A DNA stretch of 64,000 nt from an uncultured Lentimicrobiaceae bacterium (GTDB lineage Bacteria; Bacteroidota; Bacteroidia; Bacteroidales; WCHB1-69): contig CAZZHH010000003.1 in the NCBI GenBank assembly GCA_964653595.1, positions 37,957 through 101,956 of the forward strand. Direction: 5' to 3'. The stretch is not shown here. A report on this DNA, generated by a model with database tools, continues below.

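Follow-up and report, generated by a model that had tools for sequence, protein, structure and literature searches.

Anatomy and distribution of the repeated motif

A motif scan of the window for TGAATAAA (box 1, −35-like) followed by TTGTAnnAY (box 2, −10-like), allowing at most one mismatch over both boxes and a spacer of 11–14 nt, recovered 77 copies where ~0.6 were expected. The minus strand carries 74 of them, co-oriented with the genes; the three on the plus strand are directed towards genes of that strand or into a non-coding stretch. Within the array, a ~52-kb block of small, mostly minus-strand genes, 70 copies occur at about one per 0.74 kb. The distance from motif to start codon has a median of 36 nt, and the start codon is preceded by a Shine-Dalgarno sequence. 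The initial annotation had described a promoter-like module, a reading at odds with random orientation; the excess over expectation and the fixed distance to the ATG uphold it, and the orientation of the copies is far from random. Its count of only two copies left of 11.5 kb was too low, as copies are listed at 338, 4128, 5910, and 6155.

Information content is high at motif positions −4 to 7 and 20–27 and low at positions 8–19, and the spacer measures 12 nt in 71 copies, 13 nt in three, 11 nt in one, and 14 nt in one or two. T23 and A24 are present in all of 64 copies, and the last −10 position is T in 28 of 64 (44%). Spacer positions 11–12 favor C/T and then A/C, A or C recurs 6–8 nt past the TAnnAY block (positions 34–36), and the upstream A-tract resembles an UP element. 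Two conserved blocks around a low-information spacer that tolerates ±1 nt, lying upstream of genes, in gene orientation and at leader distance, correspond to the form and placement of a sigma-70-family promoter. Left of the window, variants of the motif have the sequence GGGTGTATAAT, with a perfect TATAAT. By sequence inspection, TTGTA in the subfamily at 11.5–26 kb can pair with TACAA further downstream (for example, GTTTGTATTACTAATTACAAAC). Only three to four copies have box 1 spanned by an inverted repeat of 9 bp or more. On a related scaffold of 323 kb, one motif copy ends 13 nt ahead of a tRNA-Arg, and the motif also precedes a tRNA-Phe-bearing transcript and non-coding segments ending in terminators; it would therefore drive RNA genes as well as protein genes.

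A hairpin with a T-run lies within 130 nt upstream of 21 of 73 copies, the majority having none. The autonomy that had been claimed for the single-gene transcription units is supported only in part, since read-through is likely at the copies without a terminator. A second repeat, the GTACCCCACGTAAAAT family, occurs in either orientation in the same intergenic regions as the promoter motif.

Predicted features of the window. Promoter, putative promoter copy; Hairpin, terminator-like hairpin with T-run; Repeat, second repeat.
Feature	Position	Strand	Mismatches	Sequence	Next ORF or remark
Array	11539–63251	-			~80 small same-strand genes, median 173 aa, 70 promoter copies
Promoter	338–366	-	1	TGAATATA-N12-TTGTATAAA	
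Promoter	4128–4156	-	1	TGAATAAA-N12-ATGTATACA	
Promoter	5910–5938	-	0	TGAATAAA-N12-TTGTATAAT	
Promoter	6155–6183	-	0	TGAATAAA-N12-TTGTAGTAA	
Promoter	11539–11567	-	0		10427–11503 (358 aa)
Promoter	11977–12005	-	0		11575–11946
Promoter	13385–13413	-			12848–13357; box 1 spanned by 14-bp inverted repeat
Promoter	13938–13966	-	0		13449–13904
Promoter	14565–14593	-			14005–14532; box 1 spanned by 15-bp inverted repeat
Promoter	15823–15851	-	1	TGAATGAA-N12-TTGTAGTAT	14632–15789
Promoter	16167–16194	-			11-nt spacer
Promoter	17172–17200	-	0		16411–17139
Promoter	18212–18240	-			17576–18178; example in the initial annotation; predicted transcript start ~18205
Promoter	18952–18980	-	1	AGAATAAA-N12-TTGTATAAT	18287–18922
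Promoter	20189–20217	-	0		19610–20158
Promoter	20813–20841	-	0		20225–20779
Promoter	21428–21456	-	0		20849–21394
Promoter	22841–22869	-	1	TGAACAAA-N12-TTGTAGTTA	pair 22508–22816, 22207–22506
Promoter	23518–23546	-	0		22971–23486
Promoter	24119–24147	-			23540–24097 (radical SAM, HxsC/NrdG-like)
Promoter	24634–24662	-		TGAATAAA-N12-ATGTAAAAT	24155–24604 (zinc-ribbon protein, probable Lar-like)
Promoter	24698–24726	+	1		24755–25213 (+)
Promoter	25924–25952	-	0		25293–25892
Promoter	26348–26376	-	0		25946–26326
Promoter	26821–26849	-	0		26607–26798
Promoter	27711–27739	-	0		pair 27418–27678, 27063–27425
Promoter	28092–28120	-	1	TGAATAAA-N12-TGGTATTAG	27750–28076
Promoter, degenerate	28909–28937	-		TGAATAAA-N12-ACGGTATTT	28135–28767
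Promoter	29890–29918	-			29305–29856, 29066–29305; inside 3' end of ORF 29893–30378
Promoter	30408–30436	-		TGAATAAA-N12-ATGTACGGT	29893–30378 (zinc-ribbon protein, probable Lar-like)
Promoter	31700–31728	-	0		30448–31668
Promoter	32416–32444	-	0		31776–32384
Promoter	33061–33089	-	0		32494–33030
Promoter	33669–33697	-	0		33087–33638
Promoter	34388–34416	-	0		33745–34356
Promoter	35314–35342	-	0		34410–35282
Promoter	37495–37523	-			three-gene operon: 36276–37475 (BspA-type LRR), 35931–36263, 35355–35930
Promoter	37570–37598	+			37635–37913 (+)
Promoter, degenerate	37993–38021	+		TGAATAAG-N12-GTGGTAATAC	about 38100–38561 (+)
Promoter	39335–39364	-			LRR gene ending at 38616; 13-nt spacer
Promoter	40006–40034	-	0		39395–39973
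Promoter	40646–40674	-	1	TGAATAAT-N12-TTGTATTAG	40062–40613
Promoter	41474–41502	-			40682–41446 (RNA ligase)
Promoter	42243–42271	-	1	TGAATAAA-N12-CTGTATCAG	41553–42218
Promoter	42538–42566	-	0		small ORF downstream
Promoter	43225–43253	-	1	TGAATAAA-N12-TGGTATTAG	42614–43195 (LRR)
Promoter, degenerate	43901–43929	-		TGAATAAAGTACCTGCTTATGTATATTAG	43303–43869
Promoter	44629–44657	-	0		44071–44601
Promoter	45706–45734	-			44708–45673 (ArdC-like anti-restriction)
Promoter	45801–45829	-	0		tandem with 45706–45734
Promoter	46647–46675	-	0		45959–46618
Promoter	47191–47219	-	0		46868–47158
Promoter	47636–47664	-	0		47234–47602
Promoter	48260–48288	-	0		47675–48220
Promoter	48798–48826	-	1	TGAATAAA-N12-CTGTAATAT	48304–48762
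Promoter	49408–49437	-			48928–49374; 13-nt spacer
Promoter	49748–49776	-	0		49491–49709
Promoter	50449–50477	-	0		49787–50416
Promoter	51162–51190	-	0		50587–51117
Promoter	51989–52017	-	0		51321–51947 (LRR)
Promoter	52652–52680	-	1	TGAATAAA-N12-GTGTAATAT	52142–52633
Promoter	53236–53264	-	1	TGAATAAA-N12-CTGTAATAT	52752–53195
Promoter	53731–53759	-	0		53344–53706
Promoter	54264–54292	-	0		53881–54204
Promoter	55111–55139	-	0		54402–55073 (LRR)
Promoter	55619–55647	-	1	TGAATAAG-N12-TTGTATTAT	55269–55574
Promoter	56294–56322	-	0		55762–56259
Promoter	57169–57197	-	0		56431–57153
Promoter	57511–57539	-	0		57256–57477
Promoter	57657–57687	-	1	TGGATAAA	14-nt spacer
Promoter	58722–58750	-	1	TGAATAAA-N12-CTGTAGATA	57815–58615 (LRR)
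Promoter	59824–59853	-			58908–59774 (ArdC-like paralogue); 13-nt spacer
Promoter	60295–60323	-	0		59980–60249
Promoter	60962–60990	-	0		60494–60922
Promoter	61734–61762	-	1	CGAATAAA-N12-TTGTAAGTA	61111–61698
Promoter	62171–62199	-	1	TGAATAAA-N12-CTGTAGGTA	61819–62124
Promoter	62709–62737	-	0		62272–62652
Promoter	63162–63190	-	0		62827–63117
Promoter	63223–63251	-	0		tandem with 63162–63190; first copy of the array
Promoter	63295–63323	+			into C/T-rich non-coding stretch, without downstream ORF
Hairpin	6193–6215	-			
Hairpin, weak (T-run not noted)	24708–24734	-			
Hairpin	26396–26425	-			
Hairpin	31741–31772	-		AATTCAGGTTGG family	
Hairpin	33710–33741	-		AATTCAGGTTGG family	
Two-way terminator hairpin	38566–38589	both			boundary of plus-strand island and minus-strand genes
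Hairpin, weak (T-run not noted)	39467–39482	-			
Hairpin	41520–41545	-		GGGGATTCA family	
Hairpin	43274–43293	-			
Hairpin	44676–44699	-		GGGGATTCA family	
Hairpin	45931–45952	-		GGGGATTCA family	
Hairpin	50554–50581	-			
Hairpin	51291–51312	-		GGGGATTCA family	
Hairpin	52723–52742	-			
Hairpin	53317–53340	-			
Hairpin	53851–53872	-			
Hairpin	54369–54396	-		GACTGGAGTCAGAAATGACTCCAGT family	
Hairpin	55236–55263	-		GACTGGAGTCAGAAATGACTCCAGT family	
Hairpin	55734–55752	-			
Hairpin	58873–58902	-		GGGGATTCAGAAATGAATCCCC family	
Hairpin	60448–60488	-			
Hairpin	62244–62266	-			
Repeat	38593–38608	-		GTACCCCACGTAAAAT family	
Repeat	43990–44005	-			
Repeat	45869–45884	-			
Repeat	45891–45906	-			
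Repeat	48865–48880	-			
Repeat	50523–50538	+			inverted
Repeat	51248–51263	-			
Repeat	52075–52090	-			
Repeat	53298–53313	+			inverted
Repeat	53819–53834	+			inverted
Repeat	54339–54354	+			inverted
Repeat	55198–55213	-			
Repeat	55687–55702	-			
Repeat	56357–56372	-			
Repeat	57562–57577	-			
Repeat	57742–57757	+			inverted
Repeat	58808–58823	-			
Repeat	59911–59926	-			
Repeat	60380–60395	-			inverted pair with 60429–60444
Repeat	60429–60444	+			inverted; pairs with 60380–60395
Repeat	61050–61065	-			

Gene content and exchange of cassettes

The array encodes a pair of ArdC-like anti-restriction proteins, two zinc-ribbon proteins (probably Lar-like), and an RNA ligase. Searched against the phage collection, a radical-SAM protein also encoded there matches Bacteroides/crAss-like and uncultured phage records. 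Array proteins had no homologues among 50,697 phage records or 5.8 billion protein clusters, and no DNA-level match of the sequence to phage records was found. Paralogues account for 44 of the 80 array genes, in 16 families at 22–72% identity. The cassettes probably derive from a large, uncultivated, virulent phage of ~0.3 Mb; tRNAs lie nearby, and the related scaffold measures 322,919 bp. The sequence read, part of this ~0.3-Mb genome, holds no virion, structural, or replication genes, so "phage" is itself an inference.

Modules of 76 nt with 80–93% identity stand before proteins that share no detectable similarity or only 24–43% identity. Outside the core, similarity between cassettes declines from 0.52 to 0.38 the further apart they lie (random sequence, 0.275), a signal that strong purifying selection over all 76 nt could partly mimic. 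The window and scaffold L044 differ by a cassette replacement whose two junctions fall within box 1 and ~35 nt upstream of a box, respectively. The repeats are also the points at which short-read assemblies of this phage break, and they account for the fragmentation of these assemblies into 2-kb pieces. The cassettes may double as stretches of homology for gene duplication, swapping, and loss, which would account for both the paralogue families and the mosaicism between strains. Recombination at cassettes is seen for this one junction pair, and its extension to a general rule draws on that single well-resolved strain difference and on the similarity statistics.

Proposed reading of the promoters

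We propose that the repeats serve as promoter-plus-leader cassettes, in which an A-rich upstream tract would be followed by a −35-like box, (AATTTG)TGAATAAA, a spacer of 12 ± 1 nt, a −10-like block, TTG-TAnnAY, a purine-rich leader of ~25 nt that includes an AGAAAGG Shine-Dalgarno sequence, and the ATG. Judging from this anatomy, a bacterial-type RNA polymerase holoenzyme with sigma-70-family geometry would start transcription ~7 nt past TAnnAY, giving about three-quarters of the genes a transcription start of their own across the 52-kb block of orphan genes. About one-third of the cassettes also carry an upstream terminator hairpin, and the remainder would permit read-through, so that transcripts may add up along the array. 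Since the −35-like box is near-invariant but is not the TTGACA of a primary sigma, specificity may come from a dedicated factor, either a phage-encoded sigma or a phage protein re-targeting the host sigma, which is the weakest link of the proposal. Promoter cassettes, a dedicated factor, read-through, and recombination together form the best overall explanation, in which our confidence is slightly above even.

A canonical sigma-70 scan returned 75 sites against 87.6 expected in shuffled sequences, for a consensus that may not be that of the host. None of the top sites listed coincides with a motif copy in both hexamers, the site at 49772–49745 sharing only the −10, and an intergenic word comparison found no enrichment of TTGACA or TATAAT between genes. 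The hexamer of box 1 reads TGAATA at 17 bp or RTGAAT at 18 bp, with T as first base in 1 of 64 copies in the 18-bp register, and thus departs from the TTGACA-like −35 at 16–18 bp of the primary-sigma consensus; TG abuts the −10 hexamer directly, without the intervening base of an extended −10, TGnTATAAT. The sigma-70-family reading in the initial annotation fits the bipartite −35/−10 geometry of the motif.

Ordinary early promoters read by the unmodified host primary sigma are an unlikely, though far from negligible, alternative: a weak RTGAAT −35 at 18 bp would be helped by the A-tract (alpha-subunit contacts) and by the TTG beside the −10, and near-identity would stem from common descent and homogenization. 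A primary sigma could accommodate the TAnnAY block as well as the TGTATAAT variants and the UP-like A-tract, and the cassettes are clearly homogenized locally. No sigma-family domain was found among the 93 proteins of the window (Pfam, NCBIfam), 64 kb of a genome with a further ~240 kb, and host sigma-70 reads both T4 early promoters and the promoter-early stem-loop (PeSL) cassettes of T4-like phages (PMC2839356). Genes of anti-restriction type should be switched on right after injection, which favors an unmodified host holoenzyme or a virion-delivered factor. T4 early promoters deviate from the host consensus yet use host sigma-70. However, besides the unenriched scan and word counts and the displaced TG, A, T, A stand in box 1 where the consensus has G, C, A or A, C, A, the last −10 position is T in fewer than half of the copies, and ~77 strong sigma-A promoters should drift towards consensus under selection.

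A sigma-free phage RNA polymerase, whether a multisubunit enzyme packaged in the virion (phiKZ, AR9) or a single-subunit one (T7, N4, crAss-like phages), would take the ~45-nt unit as one recognition site and would explain early anti-restriction expression without host sigma. At ~323 kb, the genome is as large as those of phages that encode polymerases themselves, and the unit is long and highly conserved, like virion-polymerase (vRNAP) promoters (AR9 AAATATATATTAT-N6-G, 41 copies; PMC5312081). This remains improbable, as a bipartite motif with a low-information spacer of 11–14 nt is of sigma type, unlike contiguous, fixed-register vRNAP or T7 promoters, the −10-like block reads TAnnAT or TATAAT, and no RNA polymerase gene was seen in the minor part of the genome that was read. 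The upstream A-tract also suggests alpha-subunit contacts, and phiKZ-type RNA polymerases are not known to contain alpha. More improbable still, TGAATAAA could be a −10-like element for a −35-independent sigma in the style of T4 gp55 (TATAAATA), with the start in the spacer at C-A and TTGTAnTA acting as a 5' leader RNA element or operator. The base preference at spacer positions 11–12 would suit such a start and the TTGTA/TACAA pairing could form an RNA hairpin or operator, but the pairing is confined to one subfamily, TAnnAY with an A 6–8 nt on fits a normal −10 better, the leader before tRNA-Arg would be ~35 nt instead of 6–7 nt, and ±1 spacer variation is expected between two DNA contacts. 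Least probable of all is that the repeats are not mainly promoters and represent recombination or binding sites (cassette exchange, partition, packaging) or a miniature mobile element landing between genes. Mosaicism and homogenization at cassette level and the orientation-independent second repeat would accord with this; against it stand the strict co-orientation with genes, the fixed distance to the Shine-Dalgarno sequence and ATG, the position ahead of tRNA genes, the sigma-type anatomy, and domain searches that detected no integrase or recombinase in the window.

The promoter-cassette explanation can be taken further in a form that is possible but tentative: TGAATAAA-N12-TTGTAnnAT may be the target of an undescribed phage-specified factor, a divergent sigma or a protein re-targeting sigma region 4, which would be encoded elsewhere in a ~323-kb lineage with no relative in present-day collections and control well over 80 promoters, with the cassettes as the recombination engine of a "gene nursery" of more than 50 kb, in which orphan genes would be created and exchanged, and as a second, independent invention of PeSL outside T4-like phages. 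If the proposal is true, the ~77 aligned examples of one promoter class would suffice to define every recognition position of a sequence unmatched by any sigma or phage polymerase described so far, pointing to a factor searchable elsewhere in the genome and to a possible orthogonal promoter-factor pair. Repeated regulatory cassettes before orphan genes would then not be peculiar to T4-like phages, and cassette-bounded gene gain, loss, and duplication may be a more general route by which very large phages renew accessory gene pools. The motif is also usable as an annotation aid for the transcription units of this lineage.

Comparison with known promoter systems

PeSL cassettes, described in the T4-like phages RB49, phi1, PST, and nt-1 (Arbiol et al. 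2010, PMC2839356; Comeau et al. 2014, PMC4122927), likewise number dozens of near-identical intergenic copies, lie mostly ahead of orphan genes in variable regions, are in a share of cases joined to a stem-loop terminator, and share with the present cassettes the order of an upstream stop codon in an AT-rich stretch, −35, −10, Shine-Dalgarno sequence, and start codon (PMC2839356). Indels and replacements between related genomes end at cassettes in both systems; here, variable regions and strain differences at cassettes are found, with one well-resolved case (the window versus L044). However, PeSL promoters match the E. coli sigma-70 consensus, whereas the TGAATAAA box is without a canonical signal; the stem-loop is a described PeSL constituent, whereas 21 of 73 copies here have a terminator hairpin and three to four a stem over box 1; and the density is 70 copies in 52 kb against 51–52 per ~165-kb genome. 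In addition, no T4 core genes were seen in the sequence read, and the lineage is without detectable relatives.

The early and middle promoter classes of T4, summarized in PMC5312081, belong, as is probable here, to a large virulent phage with tens of promoters per class, and likewise carry phage-specific conserved positions beyond the host consensus as well as an upstream A-rich tract. No MotA or AsiA homologue was detected here. In T4 middle promoters, a box for the activator MotA near −30 replaces the −35 while the sigma-70 −10 is kept, and this box, (a/t)(a/t)(a/t)TGCTTtA, lies 11–13 bp upstream of a TAnnnT −10, whereas the box here is TGAATAAA and stands 15 nt from the TA. Promoters of ECF-type sigma factors have AAC in the −35 and CGT in the −10, 16–17 bp apart, as in TGAAAC-N16-CGTA of B. 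subtilis SigW, and sigma factors of narrow specificity typically have promoters in which both blocks are very highly conserved. The present motif resembles them in its near-invariant TGAA-type −35, its (C/T)GTA −10 core, and the strong conservation of both blocks, a resemblance only, but its −35 is TGAATA and its −10 core TGTA, 15 nt apart, AAC and CGT are absent, and a TAnnAT hexamer follows the GTA.

The jumbo phages AR9 and phiKZ, which have virion RNA polymerases, similarly possess a large set of highly conserved promoters of their own, detectable because the motif is over-represented, and some genes have two promoter types in tandem (PMC5312081). Each of their early promoters is one contiguous AT-rich block whose start site is fixed (defined in PMC5312081), whereas the motif here is bipartite and of sigma type, with a variable spacer and TAnnAT. 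The SPO1 host-takeover module, with 26 genes in 12.4 kb (Stewart et al. 1998, described in PMC6873191), is likewise a one-strand cluster of small early genes, mostly of unknown function, with strong promoters and ribosome-binding sites, and the AGAAAGG Shine-Dalgarno signals here are compatible with a Firmicutes-type host. SPO1 differs in its operons and sigma-A-consensus promoters, against ~80 genes in 52 kb here, mostly with one promoter each and a non-canonical box. The initial annotation had ranked the array beyond phage host-takeover modules; it is indeed denser in promoters than SPO1, but the kind of architecture is already known from the PeSL cassettes.

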